From the UHGV virus genome UHGV-1352852: DNA of 44,165 nt. One strand, given 5' to 3'. The notes under the pieces were generated by a model, which ran no database searches, had not been told where the DNA came from, and worked only from the letters and a program-made list of their open reading frames with translations. A program made the position numbers and the translations under genes. Shown here in pieces: positions 1 through 44,165 of this stretch. The DNA is from a virus. Position 1 is the first letter of the stretch. Each line of letters opens with the position of its first letter.

Positions 1-1186
1 TGGCAAACGGTGATTTTTCTATTTGCATCGCGCACACTAATATACCACTAACCCCGTCACCGACAAATGAACCAACGGCGGAGTTGTTGTACACCCATGA
101 CGCTAAAAGCAGAGAAGACGCGCCACCCTGGCGTATAGCTACCGTTTCTGTAAATCGATACCAACCATTACCAAGCTCTGCTATATCGCTGCCGGGGGCG
201 CCTGCGTAAATAACCCCTGTCGATAAGTTAGCAACACAATCCGCGATAAACCCAGCATCATCAGCGGCGCGAAGTCTCGCATAATTATAACCATAGGCCT
301 TAGCAACGTAACTGAGAGTGTATACATCACCCTCCGCAAAAGCGGAAGACACCGATTGATATACGAGATGGCTGTCGTTTGTCTGGTTCGGGACTAGCGA
401 GAACGTACCACCGTTTAGAAATCCGTCAACTGCATCCGACACTGTTGCTCTAGTTTTAGTCCACGATGCGTCAGATAATTTCGACGATTTAATCAGGATA
501 TTACTGGACGCGGATTCCGGCGGAACACGTCCAACAGCAACCCCATCAATAAACGTAAGAGGCCATTCATTAGCGGCGGACTGCACAAGATTGCCGTTGC
601 GGTTGATGTAATAAACCTGCGGCCCGTCATACACAATGCGGCTATCAAGAGTCGACGCCAGAAGGTTAATAGGTGGATACCCGGCAGGCCCTTCATTGCT
701 CCAGATGCGCGGGAACGTCGTCACATAGTTAGCGTATATTTTCAGGAAACTACCCAGACAATCCCCGTAACAGCCGTACAAATCTGGCAGATTGTTAATC
801 AGGCACTGGTTCTCAAGGTCCTGGAACGGCGATTTCTCAGCGGTTGCCGTGAAAGTAATTGTCCAGTTAATCCCGTCTTCGGTGGACTCAGCGATGGTTG
901 ACGTGATTGTTACCTGGTAATCCTCGATACCCATGCCGAAGTCATGTGCCATCCAGAAACTTGACGCACCGCCATCGACTTTCTCAAGGAACGACAGAAA
1001 CGCCTGCCGCCCCATTGCGGATGTAATCAGGGTTACGCTCACCGGAAACACGTCGTAATATGTGTCACGGCCCTGACGCACTCCGCCACCAGCTAAATCT
1101 ACACTCCAGACGTTGTTACGTCTGGTCATTGAGTAGCCTTTTGACACAATGGGCTTAAGGCTACGCGGGAAATATAAGTCGCTCAT
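1..1186 (-). CDS. minor tail protein, 5' portion; ORF runs off the window start and continues in frame at the window end
   Basis: ATG at ~1184-1186 overlaps the tape-measure stop; manual reverse translation is stop-free down to position 1 (about 395 codons). Sits directly downstream of the tape measure in the tail module. Confidence 0.5.
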   Translation of the reverse strand, partial: MSDLYFPRSLKPIVSKGYSMTRRNNVWSVDLAGGGVRQGRDTYYDVFPVSVTLITSAMGRQAFLSFLEKVDGGASSFWMAHDFGMGIEDYQVTITSTIAESTEDGINWTITFTATAEKSPFQDLENQCLINNLPDLYGCYGDCLGSFLKIYANYVTTFPRIWSNEGPAGYPPINLLASTLDSRIVYDGPQVYYINRNGNLVQSAANEWPLTFIDGVAVGRVPPESASSNILIKSSKLSDASWTKTRATVSDAVDGFLNGGTFSLVPNQTNDSHLVYQSVSSAFAEGDVYTLSYVAKAYGYNYARLRAADDAGFIADCVANLSTGVIYAGAPGSDIAELGNGWYRFTETVAIRQGGASSLLLASWVYNNSAVGSFVGDGVSGILVCAMQIEKSPFA

Positions 1187-3498
1187 TATTTGAACCCCGG
1201 CGCATTTCTTGTGGCCTTGCGGGCCTTGCTAATCTTACTGTTGCTGTTCTGCAAAGAGGCGGCCACCTGCTCCTCGATGATGATACGCAAACGGCCTTCA
1301 TCATCTTGTTCGGTGGATACGTTGCCAATTTGAGAACTCGTGTTATTTACGATAGTAACATTAGATGGGCCGGAAGAAGACCCGTTTTGCCCCATAATTT
1401 CTTTCATCTGCTGTGCCGTGCGCACACGCGATGCCCCAGCGGGCATGATAACTTCGGGTTTACCGCGTTCGGCGATGGTGGAAGCCTGTCCTGCGGATAA
1501 CTGACCGCCCTGCTCACGCGCGGACCTGATGGCGGAAATCTGCGCCATACCCGCCCCAACTGCAGCAGCAGCGGCTACGGGGGCCAGGAACGGGCCAACT
1601 ACAGGGATAGCAGCCGTTGACTTATACGCTTCAATAGCTGCGGTGTACGTGGCTATAGTGGCCTGTACGATAGCGAATGCCTTATACGCGCCAGAAGCCT
1701 CACCCAACGCAGACCCGATGTTTGAAGCCATGTTACCGAAGGCGGTTGCCGTTGCGTCGGCACGCTTCGTAGCATACTGCTCATTGATGGCGTTAAGCGC
1801 CGCCTGGTACTGCTTCTCACTAATAAGCCCCTGCTCACGGTACTTATCCGCTACCTCCAGTTTCTGCTGTTCCTGGATGTCGAGAAGCTCAAGCTCAGTA
1901 GCGTTCTGACCCATAATCTGTGCCATGAAGTCCTCGCCTTTCTGCTGCTTTTCCTGCTGCTCTTTTCTTTTCTTATCCAGTTCTTCCTGTCTGGCCTGCT
2001 CGGCTGTGAGCATAATTTGAGTTTTGGCGTTTTCATACTGCTGCTGGCTTATCGTTCCGGCGCGGTTGAACTCCTCCAGTTTCGCCAGTTTCTGTTCTTC
2101 CGCAGCGGTAATGCGCGAAATCTCATCTCCGGTTGTGCGGTCGACAGTAGCCAGGAAATCTTCCGCCGCTTTTTTCTGTCGTTCAGCCGCCGTTTCTTCG
2201 CGTTTGGCTTGTGCCGCCAGCCGTTTCTCGTTCGATTTGGCCTCGCGGTCGGCCTTCGCTTTTTCGGTAGCGTCGATGCGAGCGATGTCTTGTTGTGCTT
2301 CCGTGTCACGCGCAGCATTATACGCGGCGATCTGTTCTTTGGTGACAGCTTCACGTTTAGCGAACGCCTGCTTATCCAGTTCAGCTTGCGCACGGATACG
2401 CTCGCGGTCACTTAAGATAGCGATTTGCTGGTTTTTGACGATAGCTTCGTTCTGTTCCTGGAATCTCTGCGTTGTTGAGTTGACGTTACGACCAAGATTC
2501 TTTTGGGCCTCCGCCGCCGCGTTTGCGGACTTCTCCGCGTTCTCCAGTGCCGTGGCGTTCTTGTTGGCATTGTCGGTCAGGCGGATAAGTTCCGGGTTCA
2601 ACTGTTTTGTATTACCGAGCCAGTCGGTAAACACATCGGCGATGCGACGGGCATTCTCGGCGGTTGGCTCTTTGTTAAACGCACTCTGCGCCGCTATCAT
2701 CTCCAGCGCCTGGTCACGGTTAACCCCAAACTTACTGCTAAGCTCTGCGATATTCTGCGCCAGCATGTTGACGCCTACGATGTTACCCTCGTAAGTGCCA
2801 CCGAGTTTTTCTAACGTGTCGCCTACATCCGCACCTTTAGAGACCAATGCATCGTACTGGCTGATAGCTGATGCTGTGGATGCCTTCCATGTCTCCCATG
2901 ATTCTGCGTCCTCACGAACAGCTTTAGCTGTTTGCTGTGCGATAAGGTCCGCGTTAGCCTTAGCCAGCGCAAGCTGAGTCTCCGCCGCTTCTCTGCTGAT
3001 TTGGGTAAGCTGGATAAGGCCGTCTGTCAGTTCGAGAGAGCCGGACGCCGTTTGCTGGAAAGTATCTTTTAGCTGTTTCTGTGCGGCTTCGAGGTCTTTT
3101 GAACTGCCTTCTGCTTCGGTTAACGATTTATACAGGACACCACCGATTGCTGACGCAAGAGCAATTACGGCCCCAAGCACCGCGCCACCAGGGCCGAAAG
3201 CACCCGCAAGCTGAGAGCCTTGTTGCCCGATTGCTACGAATGCAGACGTGCCGGACTGCAACTGGACGACCATGTCCTGCACCTGGAAGCCTACCTGCCC
3301 GGCGGCGTTACGGAATTTAGCGAAACCGTCAGAAGCCGCTTTAGACGTAGCGGAGTTTACTTTATTAACATCCGGCGTTAGTTTGTTTACGGATGTGTCC
3401 GCACGGTCTGCGGATGCCGCCATAGCGTCAAGCTGTTTAGCGGCTACATCAGCGCCTTCTGTTTTTACTCTGGCAATTAGGGAAGCCGTATCAGCCAT
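1186..3498 (-). CDS. tail tape measure protein
   Basis: Track ORF 1186..3513; ATG at 3498 (MADTAS...) has a better RBS than the TTG at 3513. About 770 aa, Ala/Gln/Lys/Glu-rich coiled-coil centre, Gly-rich hydrophobic segment; lies between the chaperone pair and the tail-tip genes. Confidence 0.8.
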   Translation of the reverse strand: MADTASLIARVKTEGADVAAKQLDAMAASADRADTSVNKLTPDVNKVNSATSKAASDGFAKFRNAAGQVGFQVQDMVVQLQSGTSAFVAIGQQGSQLAGAFGPGGAVLGAVIALASAIGGVLYKSLTEAEGSSKDLEAAQKQLKDTFQQTASGSLELTDGLIQLTQISREAAETQLALAKANADLIAQQTAKAVREDAESWETWKASTASAISQYDALVSKGADVGDTLEKLGGTYEGNIVGVNMLAQNIAELSSKFGVNRDQALEMIAAQSAFNKEPTAENARRIADVFTDWLGNTKQLNPELIRLTDNANKNATALENAEKSANAAAEAQKNLGRNVNSTTQRFQEQNEAIVKNQQIAILSDRERIRAQAELDKQAFAKREAVTKEQIAAYNAARDTEAQQDIARIDATEKAKADREAKSNEKRLAAQAKREETAAERQKKAAEDFLATVDRTTGDEISRITAAEEQKLAKLEEFNRAGTISQQQYENAKTQIMLTAEQARQEELDKKRKEQQEKQQKGEDFMAQIMGQNATELELLDIQEQQKLEVADKYREQGLISEKQYQAALNAINEQYATKRADATATAFGNMASNIGSALGEASGAYKAFAIVQATIATYTAAIEAYKSTAAIPVVGPFLAPVAAAAAVGAGMAQISAIRSAREQGGQLSAGQASTIAERGKPEVIMPAGASRVRTAQQMKEIMGQNGSSSGPSNVTIVNNTSSQIGNVSTEQDDEGRLRIIIEEQVAASLQNSNSKISKARKATRNAPGFK

Positions 3499-3763
3499 CT
3501 TCTCTGCCCTCAAATATTCCGTCTAAGCCCATGATAACCTCGGCTTCGAACAAACTTATGCCGTAACCGGCGACATCACGAAACGCTACCAAATCTTGCC
3601 ATTTGAGCGCATCGCGCGGGATTATAACGATAGTATCATCTGTTTCGCGCTGTAGGAATTTAATGGCACGGTATTTCTCGAACACGTCGATAAGAGAAAC
3701 GGGGCATTCCGGCCCCGTCGCTTCTTTCATCTGCGGTTCTTTAATCACGCCCATTGCAATCAA
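3491..3763 (-). CDS. tail assembly chaperone, -1 frame ORF (T-like extension of the G/GT pair)
   Basis: Track ORF; its frame stays open upstream to ~3871 and overlaps the end of the 3853..4269 ORF in the -1 frame, the conserved siphovirus G/GT arrangement just upstream of the tape measure. Confidence 0.45.
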   Translation of the reverse strand: MIAMGVIKEPQMKEATGPECPVSLIDVFEKYRAIKFLQRETDDTIVIIPRDALKWQDLVAFRDVAGYGISLFEAEVIMGLDGIFEGREDG

Positions 3764-14247: not shown

Positions 14248-16184
14248 TATTCCCCTTTCAGATAATCAGCAACACGTTTATCGAGTTCCGCCATCTGCTT
14301 AAGCGTGAGCGGACGCCCAAAACCATCTACAGATATTACGCGAAACTCCTCTGGTGATATACCGCTGTTACGGAAAATCTTACCGCGAACAGGGCCGAGC
14401 GCCTGGTCCTGAAACCATGCGGGCTGTTGTTTAAGGAACTCGTAGTAGGTTGTGTCCGCGCTTACCTGAGTACCGCCGTCCGCCCCGCGTGCCGCGCGTT
14501 TTGCGCCTTTATCAAGGAAGTCGAACTCCGAGCTAATCACCGGGGCCGTGGTACTTCTGCAATTCGGATGCGCTGGCGGCATCGGCCCTTTTCCAATTTC
14601 CCACGTCATTCCGTCTCTGGCCCTGCAATTCTTGACTATCGCACTACCTGCTGTATAATATCCTTGACTACTAGAGAGGGTATAAACATGGCACGTTCTA
14701 AACTCGACGCTTATGCGGATGATATTTGTTCTTTGTACCGAGATGGCACTCCCGCCAGCATCATAGCCAAGAATTACGGCGTCACTACCACCACGGTAAC
14801 AACATTTCTCAAGAAGCTCGGACTCATGCATGATCGACCCCGTGGTTGGGTTTCTAACGACACCATTTTGAATCAAAAAAGGGCTATAGAATTGTTCGAG
14901 TCCGGCGTCCCGCCTATTGAGTGCATAAGAAGGACCCAAGTAAGCAAAACAGTTTTCTATTCTATGGTCAAAACACTTGGCCTCGCTAAGCGCGGGCACA
15001 CTCACAGGACATTCACCCCGGAGGAGAAAATCGCCAGAGCTATCGTCCGACAGCAAAGCGGCGCTATGAATAAGACTGAAACCCTCGCTTTTGAATTGTT
15101 TAATTCCGCTGGCGTGGACGTAGTTCCGCAGTTTGCAATCGGCCCGTACAATGTCGATTTTGCCATTGAGTCCCACTCCATCGCCATAGAAATCTGTTGC
15201 CGCGGGACTCGTGCTTACCATTTTCCTGATGGGGAAATCAGCGAGCGTATTAAAAATATAATCCGCTCTGGCTGGCATGTTTATGTTCTTCACTGTTTCG
15301 AGCACAGTCACTTTGTCAACAGTGGTATACAAGACATGCTTAGTTGGATCGAGTTCATCAAGCGGAGTCCATCCGTATTGCGTGAGTACAGGGTGTTTCG
15401 GGGTGCCACTGAACTTCTCGCCGTTGGAAAGTTCGATGGTAAAGATTTTTCCTGAATAGAGTCCGCGCATTACCGCGTCCATCCCCGCGATGGGCGCTAA
15501 TTCTGTTTCAGCCGTGAAACACGTTGTACTGGTACGGCTGTCCAGCGTTGACACCCACTCGTATTTCTCGATGATGTCGTCGTTCTGGCGGTACGTCTCG
15601 TTACGGGCTTCGTTGGATACGTGAGCCAGCGCCGTACGTATTACGGTAGCGGCGTTACGCTCAGAGATGTCGGCCAGTCCGCCAGCGCCTACAACATTCT
15701 TAACAATCTGCCGTGTGGTTTGACCCTGAACAAAGCCCATCTTAACGCCAGTTACCAGGCGCGATACTTCTGTTTCACCCCAGCCACCCATCAGCTTAGT
15801 GAAATCTACTGGCTTGTCGCTTAACGACAGAGGCTGAAACTCGGCAGCGGCCCACACCTGTTCGGCAGTAGGCGTAACAAATTCAGCGTTGACGTTGGCC
15901 GTGAGTGTCTTTACATTCCACTCAGCCTCATACGCCGCCAGGTCCTTAAGGTCTTCTGTCAGCTTTGTTTGCCAGTCACCCGTAAGTCCTGTCAGTGCTT
16001 CTTCTAGGTCGCGTAACAATTTATTCAGTCGCGCAGTGCTTCGCCCGTCGTCACCGAATAACAGCACCTGCCGTTTGATTTCATCCCGCATCTCCTGAAT
16101 GAACGGTGTGAGGTCTTTCACTTCGCCGGATGCGGTGCGTTGCAGCCATATCTGGTGGCTGATTAGGGATGTAAGTAAGCTCAT
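14247..16184 (-). CDS. head morphogenesis protein (Mu F / SPP1 gp7-like), intein-containing
   Basis: Track ORF 14247..16241; ATG at 16184 (MSLLTSL) with GGAGGG RBS. C-terminal PPAHPNCRS motif typical of the Mu F family; central ~300-aa insertion with intein motifs. Confidence 0.7.
   Translation of the reverse strand: MSLLTSLISHQIWLQRTASGEVKDLTPFIQEMRDEIKRQVLLFGDDGRSTARLNKLLRDLEEALTGLTGDWQTKLTEDLKDLAAYEAEWNVKTLTANVNAEFVTPTAEQVWAAAEFQPLSLSDKPVDFTKLMGGWGETEVSRLVTGVKMGFVQGQTTRQIVKNVVGAGGLADISERNAATVIRTALAHVSNEARNETYRQNDDIIEKYEWVSTLDSRTSTTCFTAETELAPIAGMDAVMRGLYSGKIFTIELSNGEKFSGTPKHPVLTQYGWTPLDELDPTKHVLYTTVDKVTVLETVKNINMPARADYIFNTLADFPIRKMVSTSPAATDFYGDGVGLNGKIDIVRADCKLRNYVHASGIKQFKSEGFSLIHSAALLSDDSSGDFLLRGECPVSVPALSEAKCFDHRIENCFAYLGPSYALNRRDAGLEQFYSPFLIQNGVVRNPTTGSIMHESELLEKCCYRGGSDAVILGYDAGGSAISVQRTNIIRISVEFRTCHVYTLSSSQGYYTAGSAIVKNCRARDGMTWEIGKGPMPPAHPNCRSTTAPVISSEFDFLDKGAKRAARGADGGTQVSADTTYYEFLKQQPAWFQDQALGPVRGKIFRNSGISPEEFRVISVDGFGRPLTLKQMAELDKRVADYLKGE
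14632..14659 (+). promoter_or_regulatory. sigma70 promoter TTGACT-N16-TATAAT for the intein-embedded endonuclease gene
   Basis: Near-consensus -35 and -10 hexamers read directly; GAGAGGG RBS follows ~8 nt before the ATG at 14688. Confidence 0.55.
14688..15455 (+). CDS. homing endonuclease-like protein: two HTH motifs + Vsr-like (DUF559) PD-(D/E)XK nuclease domain
   Basis: Internal ATG of track ORF 14427..15455. HTH segments SIIAKNYGVTTTTVTTFLKKLGL and IECIRRTQVSKTVFYSMVKTLGL; C-terminal core YNVDFAIESHSIAIEI...GWHVYVL; encoded antisense within the intein. Confidence 0.6.
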   Translation: MARSKLDAYADDICSLYRDGTPASIIAKNYGVTTTTVTTFLKKLGLMHDRPRGWVSNDTILNQKRAIELFESGVPPIECIRRTQVSKTVFYSMVKTLGLAKRGHTHRTFTPEEKIARAIVRQQSGAMNKTETLAFELFNSAGVDVVPQFAIGPYNVDFAIESHSIAIEICCRGTRAYHFPDGEISERIKNIIRSGWHVYVLHCFEHSHFVNSGIQDMLSWIEFIKRSPSVLREYRVFRGATELLAVGKFDGKDFS

Positions 16185-16228
16185 ATGCCCTCCTGTAGTA
16201 TCGCCAGTGTAACGCATAAAAATAATAT

Positions 16229-16257
16229 TTGCAGACACCAATATAATAGGGTACTAT
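16229..16257 (+). promoter_or_regulatory. sigma70-like promoter TTGCAG-N17-TACTAT with embedded palindrome
   Basis: Third near-identical copy; leader shares TATCGAAACGAGA with the copy at 26613. Confidence 0.5.
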
Positions 16258-18015: not shown

Positions 18016-19251
18016 TTAAAGTGCGAAACGAACTGGTGTATTGATAACAGGGCGAACAACAGGGAACAACCTATGCATACAATAGCCTAAACTGTCGTTC
18101 CAGTCGTCAATCGCCGGGTGGGTTTTAAACTTCTCTGGTTCACCATTATCGTTATACCCCTGCGTCTCCAGTGACTGCGTTAGTTTAGGGCATTTTGAAG
18201 TGTTAACCCTCAAACGGCTATGCGACAAAAGAGCGTTAACCGCGTTTATTCTGTCTTTAACGAATGGGTTCTTACTTGGAGCGTTAACGCGTAAGCCGGC
18301 CTTTTCGATGATACCTATGTCGGATAATGATGCGTTAGTGTGGCCTGAGCGACCAGACGCGTCAGGGTAAACCGTAACCGTATGGCCTGGATACCGTATC
18401 CTGACATTATTGACGAAGTCGTCGGTATTATGGCTGACAAACTCATCAACAACCGTCGGGTTGCCGTCTTCGATAACGCTCACGGTGGCGCAACATCCAC
18501 CAATATTAAAGTCCAGCCCTATGTGGAGCGCATCTCCGTTCCGCAAGGTGCGAGTGGAGTCATGGGTGCTTCGTTTGAAATAGTGATACACCTTATTAGC
18601 AGTCAAACTGACAAATTCACCGTTGATATACATATCGGCTAAAGCCGCATCGTAGTTCCTGCGTATCTGTTCGACGTAGCCGTCAGGTAAATATGGGTTC
18701 GACAATGTAGACGCCTTAATCAGTTCCGTAGAACTGTCAGCGTTAGTGACCCAATAGTCATACACAAATCCAGAGAATCCCTGGTCAGGGGTAGTCACAG
18801 CGGCAATACTGTTACCCCCTCTGCAAGGCTGTCGGGTACGCTCTGAAATTTTACGCCACACCAGAGACGCCTGTTCTTTAGTAAGAACGTCAAGTTCATC
18901 GGCGACAGAATGGGCTACTTCAAAAGCGATTAGACGGTTCGGGTTGTCGTATGACCTGAAAAACATAGTACCGTACCCCTTAACGTGGATACTGTATTCC
19001 GATTTGTTGAGGTCATACTTAAGCCCCATCATATTCAGGTCATCAACCACACCAGGGATGGCGCGCAGCTTCAACAGGTCATACGTAGGCATGGTGTACA
19101 GGGTGTTTATCCCGCGCTCGCGCAACATAAGATACAAAAGGCGCATCGTTGCCGCGCGGGACTTACCCGCCCCCAGTCCTGCGACAATAGCCGGATGTGT
19201 TTTTGTGCTGAATACAAAGTCTTGTTGGGGTTCGGTTAATGGGATATCCAT
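18016..19251 (-). CDS. terminase large subunit
   Basis: N-terminal Walker A-like VAGLGAGKSRA, nuclease-type C-terminal half; ATG overlaps the small-subunit stop. Confidence 0.8.
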   Translation of the reverse strand: MDIPLTEPQQDFVFSTKTHPAIVAGLGAGKSRAATMRLLYLMLRERGINTLYTMPTYDLLKLRAIPGVVDDLNMMGLKYDLNKSEYSIHVKGYGTMFFRSYDNPNRLIAFEVAHSVADELDVLTKEQASLVWRKISERTRQPCRGGNSIAAVTTPDQGFSGFVYDYWVTNADSSTELIKASTLSNPYLPDGYVEQIRRNYDAALADMYINGEFVSLTANKVYHYFKRSTHDSTRTLRNGDALHIGLDFNIGGCCATVSVIEDGNPTVVDEFVSHNTDDFVNNVRIRYPGHTVTVYPDASGRSGHTNASLSDIGIIEKAGLRVNAPSKNPFVKDRINAVNALLSHSRLRVNTSKCPKLTQSLETQGYNDNGEPEKFKTHPAIDDWNDSLGYCMHRLFPVVRPVINTPVRFAL

Positions 19252-20036: not shown

Positions 20037-20297
20037 TCATTCCCCTCTCCCCTCTTTAGTGATACGTTGCTCTGTTTTAGTGATACCCCGGCGCGTGAAT
20101 AACACCGGGCTTGTCTTAACGTGCGTCATCAGACGGTTGTTATAAATTACGTGGCGCTCGCAGTTCACGTCTTTGCTGTACTTCGCAATCGTCATTTCGT
20201 TGATGCCGGTTTGTCGGCATGTCTCCGCCATCGTGCCGAATTCTTTAATCAGGTTCGGAATGCTGGTAATCATCCTAAGAAATTCCTCGTTGTCCAC
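20037..20297 (-). CDS. small HTH DNA-binding protein
   Basis: HTH-like segment AETCRQTGINEMTIAKYSK; true start may be the internal ATG near 20273. Confidence 0.4.
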   Translation of the reverse strand: MDNEEFLRMITSIPNLIKEFGTMAETCRQTGINEMTIAKYSKDVNCERHVIYNNRLMTHVKTSPVLFTRRGITKTEQRITKEGRGE

Positions 20298-38555: not shown

Positions 38556-40511
38556 TTACAGCGTAAGGATAGACCCAGAAATTATAATCCCAGACGCCCC
38601 CGAGGTTGTTGGTACAAATATTTTGCCAGTGCTATCTATAACCGCGCTACCAAAGCTATTTCCAGTAGTACTGGCTACGGAGCAGACAGTTTGTGCCGAT
38701 AATGTACCAAATGGAAGTTGTATAAAGCTTATACCAAGCGATGTTGATAGGGAGTTACCACTCACGGTGAGTGTAAAATCAACACGCTTACCGCTGCGAA
38801 TATACTTCCCACTCATCACTGGAGATGTTACCGTCCAACCTGGGATGGTGAACGTGAAATCTCTTTGAGAGAGGTCTCCACTAAGGCTGAGGTTTGAAGC
38901 CGCCCACGAAGATTCACCACCAATACCTTTCAGTAGGTTTTCTGCGTACACGTTTGTGACACTCATGTTTTTATTGGCCGAAAGAAAACCAATATCATGC
39001 TGTGCGTTTGAACCTGGGGTCAGGCTTACTGGATTATCTATATGAATATTAGCATTATACCCACCACTGCCATCCACCAAAACAAGCGCACCAGCTACTG
39101 CTGTATTGCCTGTGTTATTACCTGCACCAAAAGGAGAGAGTATTTCTACATTACTAGAGCCATTAGAAATATAGAACACCCCGTTTTTATTGGCTCCGCC
39201 CGCACAGTTTATAGCTGTAAACCCTTTTACGGCATACAGAACATAGCCATAACCTTTTACCTCGCTTCCTTCTGAAGCGCAGGTTACCATGGAGGTATAA
39301 ATGCAGCTCTGGAAGTAGTAGTAGCCCCCAATTTGGTAGCAGTTTTTAAATGTTATGGATGTACATAGAGGTTGTACGGCAACCGCCGGGCCTCCTCCGT
39401 GCATCCATATTTTACAGTTATCCACCGAACCCATGAAGGCACAGTCTTCTCCTCCAGACTCGCCGAAACGCATACCCTGCCCGGCCGGGCCAGAATTTGA
39501 ATCGATAGTTACACCATCAATTTTAAAGTTATCAAGTTGCGTAACCCATAACGCAACTGATAGTGATGGGCTAACTTTACGGTGTGATATATGGAAATCA
39601 TTTAAGGTAAGCCCTCTAACACCTTTGAATGTTAAAGCTCTTGAGTTTTCTGGAATATCATCAAAATCAAGATAACAGTAGTTATCTGTCTTCGCGCCGC
39701 TCTTATGGTTTGAACTTCCAGTACCTATCACCTTGAGGCTATATTGGTCCTCGTAGTCAACTACAATAGGGCTAAGGAATTTATACTTACCACCGAGCCT
39801 TACTTCTTTTCCTTTTGCAGACGCAAAACACTTATTAAAAGCACTCGTGCAATCTGAGGTACCTGATGGATCGGCCCCAAACCATTCTGGGAGTAAAACC
39901 CCATTAAATACGCGGCCCCATCTCCGATTGATTGCATCTACTAAAACGGTCCCATCATCATCTTGCGTTGTAGCATCGCCTGAAATTACGCTAAACCATC
40001 CGCCAGCCATTGTTGCTCCAGCGCTACGGCCTCTGACATACAGATATGTTGCCGGGCCAGAATACGCGCGCAAATCATCGTAGCTCGGGAGGTATACCAA
40101 ACTTAAGCCATCTATGCTGGCCAAATCTTCTCTCAAATTAGGGTCTGTCCGAGGTTTCCAGTCAGCGTTTCCTACTGGGTTAAAACCAGCGGGAACTGTA
40201 ACAGGAAGTGCACCTACGTACGAATACCATGTTTCACTTACGGGGTCGTAGACAACTTTGTCGCGGTCATTAACAGTTAACGTACCGCCGGTAGAGAAGT
40301 CCCACGACACAGGAGAAAACCCAGCGTCACGTAACACCGCCGGGAGCGTCTTCTGTGTCTGTCCTGTAACCTGGTTTGTTGCGTAATCAATATCAGCGCC
40401 ACCTGCGACACCACCAGATTTACCGGTGATAACTTCAGCTTCAAAAATTTGGTGTTTCTTGGCGGTTTGTAAATCCGCCAGGCTTAAAACGTCACCGCAT
40501 CCGCTTGACAT
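38556..40511 (-). CDS. tailspike / receptor-binding protein (probable beta-helix depolymerase)
   Basis: 651-aa Gly/Asn/Thr/Ser-rich protein with periodic beta-helix-like composition; last gene of the tail module. Confidence 0.6.
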   Translation of the reverse strand: MSSGCGDVLSLADLQTAKKHQIFEAEVITGKSGGVAGGADIDYATNQVTGQTQKTLPAVLRDAGFSPVSWDFSTGGTLTVNDRDKVVYDPVSETWYSYVGALPVTVPAGFNPVGNADWKPRTDPNLREDLASIDGLSLVYLPSYDDLRAYSGPATYLYVRGRSAGATMAGGWFSVISGDATTQDDDGTVLVDAINRRWGRVFNGVLLPEWFGADPSGTSDCTSAFNKCFASAKGKEVRLGGKYKFLSPIVVDYEDQYSLKVIGTGSSNHKSGAKTDNYCYLDFDDIPENSRALTFKGVRGLTLNDFHISHRKVSPSLSVALWVTQLDNFKIDGVTIDSNSGPAGQGMRFGESGGEDCAFMGSVDNCKIWMHGGGPAVAVQPLCTSITFKNCYQIGGYYYFQSCIYTSMVTCASEGSEVKGYGYVLYAVKGFTAINCAGGANKNGVFYISNGSSNVEILSPFGAGNNTGNTAVAGALVLVDGSGGYNANIHIDNPVSLTPGSNAQHDIGFLSANKNMSVTNVYAENLLKGIGGESSWAASNLSLSGDLSQRDFTFTIPGWTVTSPVMSGKYIRSGKRVDFTLTVSGNSLSTSLGISFIQLPFGTLSAQTVCSVASTTGNSFGSAVIDSTGKIFVPTTSGASGIIISGSILTL

Positions 40512-43953: not shown

Positions 43954-44165
43954 TTATCCGTCCACATTAAAATCAATACGGGTGATGTACTTGCTTCCCC
44001 ACGCAGAGTCTGCTTGAGGGATGGCGGCGTAACCGTCAACAGACGGAACGTTTACCACAGAGCCGTCTGAATATGTAATATCAATGCTTGTTGCACCGTT
44101 CATTACTACTTTTGCCGATGCCATAGGGCGTGCGGATGGTGATGCGTCGGTTACTATCGGCGATG
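43954..44165 (-). CDS. 3' portion of the minor tail gene that begins at ~1186 (wraps across the window boundary)
   Basis: Minus-strand frame is open from the window end to a TAA at ~43954-43956 and is in phase with the ORF that runs off position 1. Confidence 0.4.
   Translation of the reverse strand, partial: SPIVTDASPSARPMASAKVVMNGATSIDITYSDGSVVNVPSVDGYAAIPQADSAWGSKYITRIDFNVDG

Follow-up and report, generated by a model that had tools for sequence, protein, structure and literature searches.

The 44,165-nt stretch of DNA analyzed here (UHGV virus genome UHGV-1352852; hereafter, the window) can be assigned from its sequence to the genus Kagunavirus (Guernseyvirinae), and on this assignment it is the genome of an ordinary E. 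coli phage. It is almost certainly a complete genome that was cut open at an arbitrary point, and the cut lies within a single gene, the two parts of which now stand at opposite ends of the record. The coordinates of the split gene, its neighbors, and the terminase genes are listed in Table 1.

Table 1. Split gene, tail-block neighbors, and terminase genes of the window.
Feature	Coordinates	Strand	Remarks
Split gene, 5' part	1..1186	minus	ATG 1186-1184, codons 1-395, and the first base of codon 396 (position 1)
Split gene, 3' part	43954..44165	minus	Last two bases of codon 396 (44165, 44164), codons 397-465, TAA 43956-43954
Tail tape measure protein gene	1186..3513	minus	phrog_1538, E 1.9e-198; directly upstream of the split gene
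DUF1833 minor tail protein, 171 aa	43435..43950	minus	PF08875, E 1e-16; directly downstream of the split gene
Small minor tail protein, 121 aa	43073..43438	minus	phrog_329
gpJ-like tail hub/tip protein, 852 aa	40524..43082	minus	phrog_469, E 1.8e-253
Tailspike, 651 aa	38556..40511	minus	Last gene of the tail block crossing the record ends
Small terminase-like gene, 183 aa	19251..19802	minus	phrog_3064; curated relatives open their records here
Large terminase, 411 aa, Terminase_6N/6C type	18016..19251	minus	Divergent allele within the genus

At the left end of the record, the minus-strand frame is open from the ATG at 1186-1184 to position 2, which corresponds to 395 codons, and the closest in-frame stop upstream of this ATG is at 1229-1231. 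At the right end, the first whole codon of the minus-strand frame is 44163-44161, followed through 69 open codons to the TAA at 43956-43954. The leftover bases (position 1 together with 44165 and 44164) form exactly one codon, ACA for Thr396, and the two halves are therefore in phase in a joined ORF of 465 codons. The initial annotation had placed the start near 1186, the stop near 43954, and the length at about 465 codons, and all three figures proved correct when the ends were joined and the ORF was read again. With the base composition of the window (~4.7% stops per codon), the chance of 465 open codons is ~2e-10. The gene is tightly packed with its neighbors: its ATG shares one base with the TAA of the upstream 775-aa ORF (TAATG), and the next ATG (43950) is located three bases past its own TAA. 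In the protein, the conserved N-terminal domain (aa 1-223) comes from the 5' part, as does most of a variable domain resembling carbohydrate-binding modules (CBMs). No exact terminal overlap of at least 8 nt was found between the record ends, and the first and last 3 kb share no repeat beyond one 13-mer match (E = 0.11).

The joined DNA is found uninterrupted in other phages. Its top match is the Kagunavirus vB_EcoS-22664BS2 (MZ234010.1), to which it aligns as a single segment with 94.5% identity. In that genome, the junction stretch is located within one 1,398-nt CDS encoding QZI78533.1 (465 aa), with the tail tape measure gene and small tail genes on its two sides. Over 464 residues, the joined protein and this 465-aa homologue are 97% identical in a gapless alignment, in which the sequence flanking the junction (KSPFATSPIVT) is conserved. 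The junction DNA matched 102 records; numerous independent genomes and metagenome contigs carry it unbroken at 80-94% identity, among them three IMG/VR contigs that span it at 90-93% identity. A search of 5.8 billion proteins gave 487 homologues of the joined protein, and the 120 listed are all single proteins of 429-472 aa with 92-100% query coverage, many of them from contigs of 43-46 kb. None of these 120 ends near residue 396.

These results also bear on the possibility that the two partial ORFs are separate genes, or that the join is an assembly chimera, with the phase agreeing by coincidence. A phase match is expected by chance in one of three cases, and from composition alone, 69 open codons in a row at the right end would occur with a probability of ~0.04. 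However, this explanation is refuted by the contiguous junction in relatives, by the gapless homologue, by the homologue lengths, and by an entry in NCBI nr that is the joined protein itself, and we give it practically no weight. That the two ORFs form one gene, as first proposed, is thus confirmed by the in-phase join and by junction DNA contiguous in more than 100 phage records and the three IMG/VR contigs. The same proposal would have fallen if homologues had existed as two genes, but every listed homologue is a single protein.

The nr entry, DAH67531.1, is identical to the complete 465-aa joined protein and is labeled "MAG TPA: hypothetical protein [Caudoviricetes sp.]". The neighboring 171-aa protein is present as DAH67478.1, likewise with the label "MAG TPA". 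The intact gene was therefore deposited previously for the same or an identical genome. The exact protein sequence is known only as this nr entry, with no contig encoding it on record, and an exact copy of the window is absent from the INPHARED phage collection. In the human-virome TPA set of Tisza and Buck, contigs with terminal repeats of at least 21 nt were assumed to be circular, and a virome pipeline of this kind would fit the "MAG TPA" label.

For the full-length comparison, two relatives deposited as circular sequences were used: NicoleGrasset_Bas72 (PQ850621.1, 43,746 bp) and vB_EcoS_XY2 (MN927226.1, 44,138 bp), referred to as Bas72 and XY2. The window has matches in more than 100 Kagunavirus records. 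In blastn against Bas72 and XY2, 78-79% of the window was covered at ~85-95% identity, and the intergenomic similarity of ~0.7, close to the genus threshold (roughly 70% or more), is within the range for membership of Kagunavirus. The high-scoring pairs follow each circle monotonically for one full turn, and both phages share with the window the order of the genes for packaging, head, tail, lysis, and replication. Because of this full-turn collinearity with two circular relatives, the window is considered to be one complete unit-length genome. The expected modules are all present (small and large terminase, portal, head, neck, tail, lysis, and replication). Across the junction, the gap between the flanking matches is 514 nt in the window and 517 nt in Bas72, in agreement with genes of 465 and 466 aa, respectively. 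The ends join without loss or duplication, as in a complete, circularly closing unit genome. Since they also join in frame into one gene, the record represents a whole genome opened arbitrarily. The claim made at the outset, that the linearization point is arbitrary and that the whole replicon is contained, holds in this comparison: the window is a rotation of the Bas72 and XY2 circular maps, collinear for a full turn.

The Kagunavirus phages vB_EcoS-22664BS2, Bas72, XY2, hz69, and AV104 show ~90-94% nucleotide identity to the window over ~75-80% of the genome. They are similar to it in genome size and share its circular order of genes for the tape measure, the 465/466-aa protein, the DUF1833 protein, the 121-aa protein, the gpJ-like protein, and the tailspike. 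As distinguishing features, the window has a minority allele of the large terminase (TerL), a head gene with an intein-like insertion, and a tailspike body of a different type. Its record is also opened inside the split gene and not at the small terminase gene (terS). Genes spanning contig ends have been described previously for circularly permuted phage assemblies, and opening of the whole genome at an arbitrary point is routine for phages of the Kagunavirus group, whose records are as a rule either circular or made to start at terS. In related GenBank records, the split gene is found anywhere from 1.4 to 26.5 kb and on either strand; its positions cluster near 17-18 kb because records are conventionally started at the small terminase gene.

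The window might instead be a piece of a larger DNA, such as a prophage or one unit of a concatemeric contig, or a plasmid-like circular replicon. A few near-identical proteins in NCBI are labeled E. coli and come from contigs of ~44-45 kb. However, both ends of the record are within the same gene without any host flank, its length of 44,165 bp is within the genus range of 41-46 kb, and its gene content matches that of virulent Kagunavirus phages, with no integrase or partition genes annotated in the syntenic relatives. We consider such an origin very improbable, and the evidence favors a complete phage genome.

Next, we discuss the identity of the split gene. It follows the tape measure gene directly and precedes the gpL/gpJ-like hub genes, which is the position of the Dit/distal tail protein (DTP) gene in siphophages. 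In PHROG, the N-terminal third of the protein belongs to phrog_384, "virion structural protein" (E 1.6e-36), and the remainder is a "tail protein"; relatives carry the labels "minor tail protein" or "tail tip protein M" for this gene. A search of solved structures showed that residues 167-463 of the joined protein align to residues 160-457 of gp17 of the Shigella siphophage Sf11 (PDB ID: 9OCC), with E values of 1.1e-107 for the single sequence and 3e-130 for a profile. In the cryo-EM study of Sf11, gp17 is the hexameric DTP, present in six copies per virion. It consists of an N-terminal ring domain with a helix (~129-152) that anchors the tailspike trimers and a large C-terminal appendage, for which the authors state no known function. 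The match to gp17 spans the appendage, not the ring domain, and the N-terminal ~160 aa, the region modeled as the ring domain in 9OCC, have no significant sequence match to gp17. The N-terminal domain also gave no Pfam hit. The AlphaFold2 (AF2) model of the joined protein was built on a shallow alignment (70-96% identity), and its pLDDT stays below 50 for residues 1-227; within this part, it predicts a long helix at 127-151, where the adaptor helix is located in gp17. The gene order of Sf11 (tape measure gp18, DTP gp17, hub 1 gp16, hub 2 gp14, tailspike gp13) is mirrored in the window, and the lengths of the two proteins are similar (465 aa and 457 aa in Sf11). Because of its position in the tail block and its homology to Sf11 gp17, which structure determination places in the distal tail ring, we call the split gene product a predicted DTP. 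The initial annotation had described the split gene as a tail gene, and its occupation of the DTP slot together with the homology to Sf11 gp17 bears this out.

The central domain of the predicted DTP (about aa 224-432) matches NCBIfam NF048003 GTA_spike_fiber (E 1.3e-29) and, in a PDB profile search, Rcc01080 of the Rhodobacter capsulatus gene transfer agent (GTA) (PDB ID: 6TB9; E 1.5e-23). Rcc01080 is a head spike fiber of the GTA, whereas the homologous domain of the window is on a tail-tip protein. In the AF2 model, this domain is confidently predicted as a β-sandwich resembling CBMs. Foldseek reported only this CBM-like domain because the model is unreliable in the N-terminal domain. The β-sandwich also resembles baseplate proteins of phages E217 and Pa193. 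Within the genus, aa 224-409 (window 1-517 and 44164-44165, minus strand) constitute the variable part of the protein, and residues 1-223 and 410-465 are almost invariant. The homologues of the central domain further include the appendage at the C-terminus of Sf11 gp17. At the tail tip, this domain may provide a second module for glycan binding.

Salmonella phage Jersey has DUF1833-type and gpJ-type proteins that were assigned as λ gpL-like and gpJ-like hub components. The DUF1833 protein of the window is the counterpart of the gpL-like hub protein of Jersey, gp30, and occupies the slot of baseplate hub 1 in Sf11. The tailspike gene at the end of this block is a mosaic. Resemblance to other Kagunavirus tailspikes (82-85% nucleotide identity) is limited to its N-terminal anchor (~40111-40511), and its body (~38776-40137) is closest to a tail fiber gene of Shigella phage Sd1, which is outside the genus (81% nucleotide identity).

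The head region contains the intein-like insertion mentioned above. The SPP1 gp7/Mu F-like head morphogenesis gene (14250-16241, minus strand) encodes 664 aa compared with 358 aa in Bas72, and the insertion at 14632-15525 accounts for ~298 extra residues. The inserted segment starts with a cysteine (CFTAET...) and ends with ...IVKN, and the next residue is a cysteine, which is the pattern of an intein. Its matches to intein families in Pfam and NCBIfam are weak and below the cutoffs. Similar inteins have been annotated in phage fEg-Eco06 and reported for phage Snoke.

The terminase genes are relevant to the question of how the virion DNA is cut. The window TerL matches Pfam Terminase_6N with 27.5 bits, above the cutoff, and Terminase_6C with 22.3 bits, just below the cutoff of 22.6. 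In a single-sequence search of the PDB, TerL gave helicase matches that were spurious, and a 10-sequence profile was therefore used. This profile reached TerL of P74-26 (E 2e-6) and gp2 of Sf6 (E 7e-5) over the ATPase domain only; these matches to solved terminases are weak and separate the packaging classes poorly. No match to a cos-type terminase was found for TerL, either in Pfam or with the 10-sequence profile against solved structures. Upstream of the terminase genes, a small ORF (20037-20297, minus strand; phrog_268) has a weak NinH-like match (PF06322, E 1.8e-4) that is below the cutoff, and relatives annotate a NinH-like protein or a transcriptional regulator at this place.

The window TerL is at least 98.8% identical to TerL in just eight phage records, among them AV104, phage 26, hz69, LM02P1, BCH953P1, and Ec1-ASingh. 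It is 73% identical to TerL of Plesiomonas phage phiP4-7 and ~40% identical to those of nearly all other Guernseyvirinae (Kagunavirus and Jerseyvirus). Between 18028 and 19330, the window no longer aligns with Bas72 and XY2 at the nucleotide level. TerS is 90% identical to that of Bas72 except for the last ~15 residues, and a recombination breakpoint can therefore be placed at its C-terminus, the part that is expected to contact TerL. As judged from these sequences, TerL appears to have been replaced in a sub-lineage of eight Kagunavirus records by an allele ~40% identical to the usual one. The paper on AV104 contains no termini analysis, and no termini have been published for any of the eight records with the same allele. 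The exchange of TerL could have changed DNA cutting (for instance, the ends might be defined, or the pac/headful series might differ), but we consider this quite improbable. If it were true, the family-level argument for headful packaging would fail here, and the circular map would hide the real termini.

The initial annotation regarded the genome as consistent with a headful-packaging phage. A closed map alone is not proof of this mode because cos genomes or genomes with short repeats also give circles. Information on packaging comes from relatives. PhageTerm predicted headful (pac) packaging for the Guernseyvirinae-like coliphages Sciku and Shashou and showed redundant, random, and permuted ends for the Jerseyvirus SeF1, and it found no termini for the Kagunavirus fBC-Eco01. 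In a published TerL tree, the K1G/K1H-type terminases of Kagunavirus, which represent the common allele, adjoin those of headful phages. The window has TerS and a TerL of the Terminase_6 type, the profile of which reaches gp2 of the headful phage Sf6, and the headful systems of P22, Sf6, Sciku, Shashou, and SeF1 likewise have a circular map without unique ends. On the other hand, the window TerL is only distantly related to those of P22 and Sf6 and is ~40% identical to those of the phages tested with PhageTerm, so their packaging mode transfers more weakly than genus membership suggests. Based on the PhageTerm results of the relatives and the Terminase_6-type TerL, headful packaging of the window genome is plausible and, in our estimation, probable, and the virion DNA is most likely circularly permuted.

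Here, we propose how the record arose. The TerS/TerL pair would act as a headful (pac) terminase that cuts virion DNA from replicative concatemers. The virion DNA would then be terminally redundant and circularly permuted, as reflected in the circular map, and as a consequence of headful cutting of concatemers, there would be no unique physical end at which an assembler could stop. In the assembly, the genome was closed into a circle and then output as a linear sequence that starts at an arbitrary base inside codon 396, and joining base 44165 to base 1 restores the gene with nothing missing or duplicated. Taken as a whole, this account, namely a complete genome assembled as a closed circle, opened arbitrarily in codon 396, and with virion DNA that is most likely permuted and packaged by the headful mode, is very probably correct.

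An alternative accepts the complete genome and the arbitrary cut and places fixed virion ends elsewhere, either cohesive or with short direct terminal repeats. The circle would then be an assembly product, caused by collapse of a repeat or by assembly across ligated or concatemeric ends. These packaging modes look alike in a closed circular contig, PhageTerm made no call for the Kagunavirus phages fBC-Eco01 or vB_EcoS_179-3, and the divergent TerL allele leaves room for other cutting behavior. However, the related Guernseyvirinae with usable data are headful or permuted, TerL trees group Kagunavirus with headful phages, and no cos-type terminase was matched. Moreover, the starts of the records in the genus are scattered or set at terS by convention and do not point to a shared physical end. 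We therefore regard fixed ends as unlikely, and headful packaging remains the preferred explanation of the circular map.

The finding is real and was correctly interpreted from the beginning, and it is ordinary, belonging to biology that is already known. Circular closure and predicted headful packaging have already been reported for the subfamily, so that nothing new on phage biology follows from them. The practical value lies in annotation: the record should be treated as circular and re-opened at terS as in the curated relatives, and one 465-aa DTP should be called across the origin instead of two truncated ORFs. The swap of the terminase allele, the variable CBM-like appendage of the predicted DTP, and the intein-like insertion illustrate the normal mosaicism in the genus.
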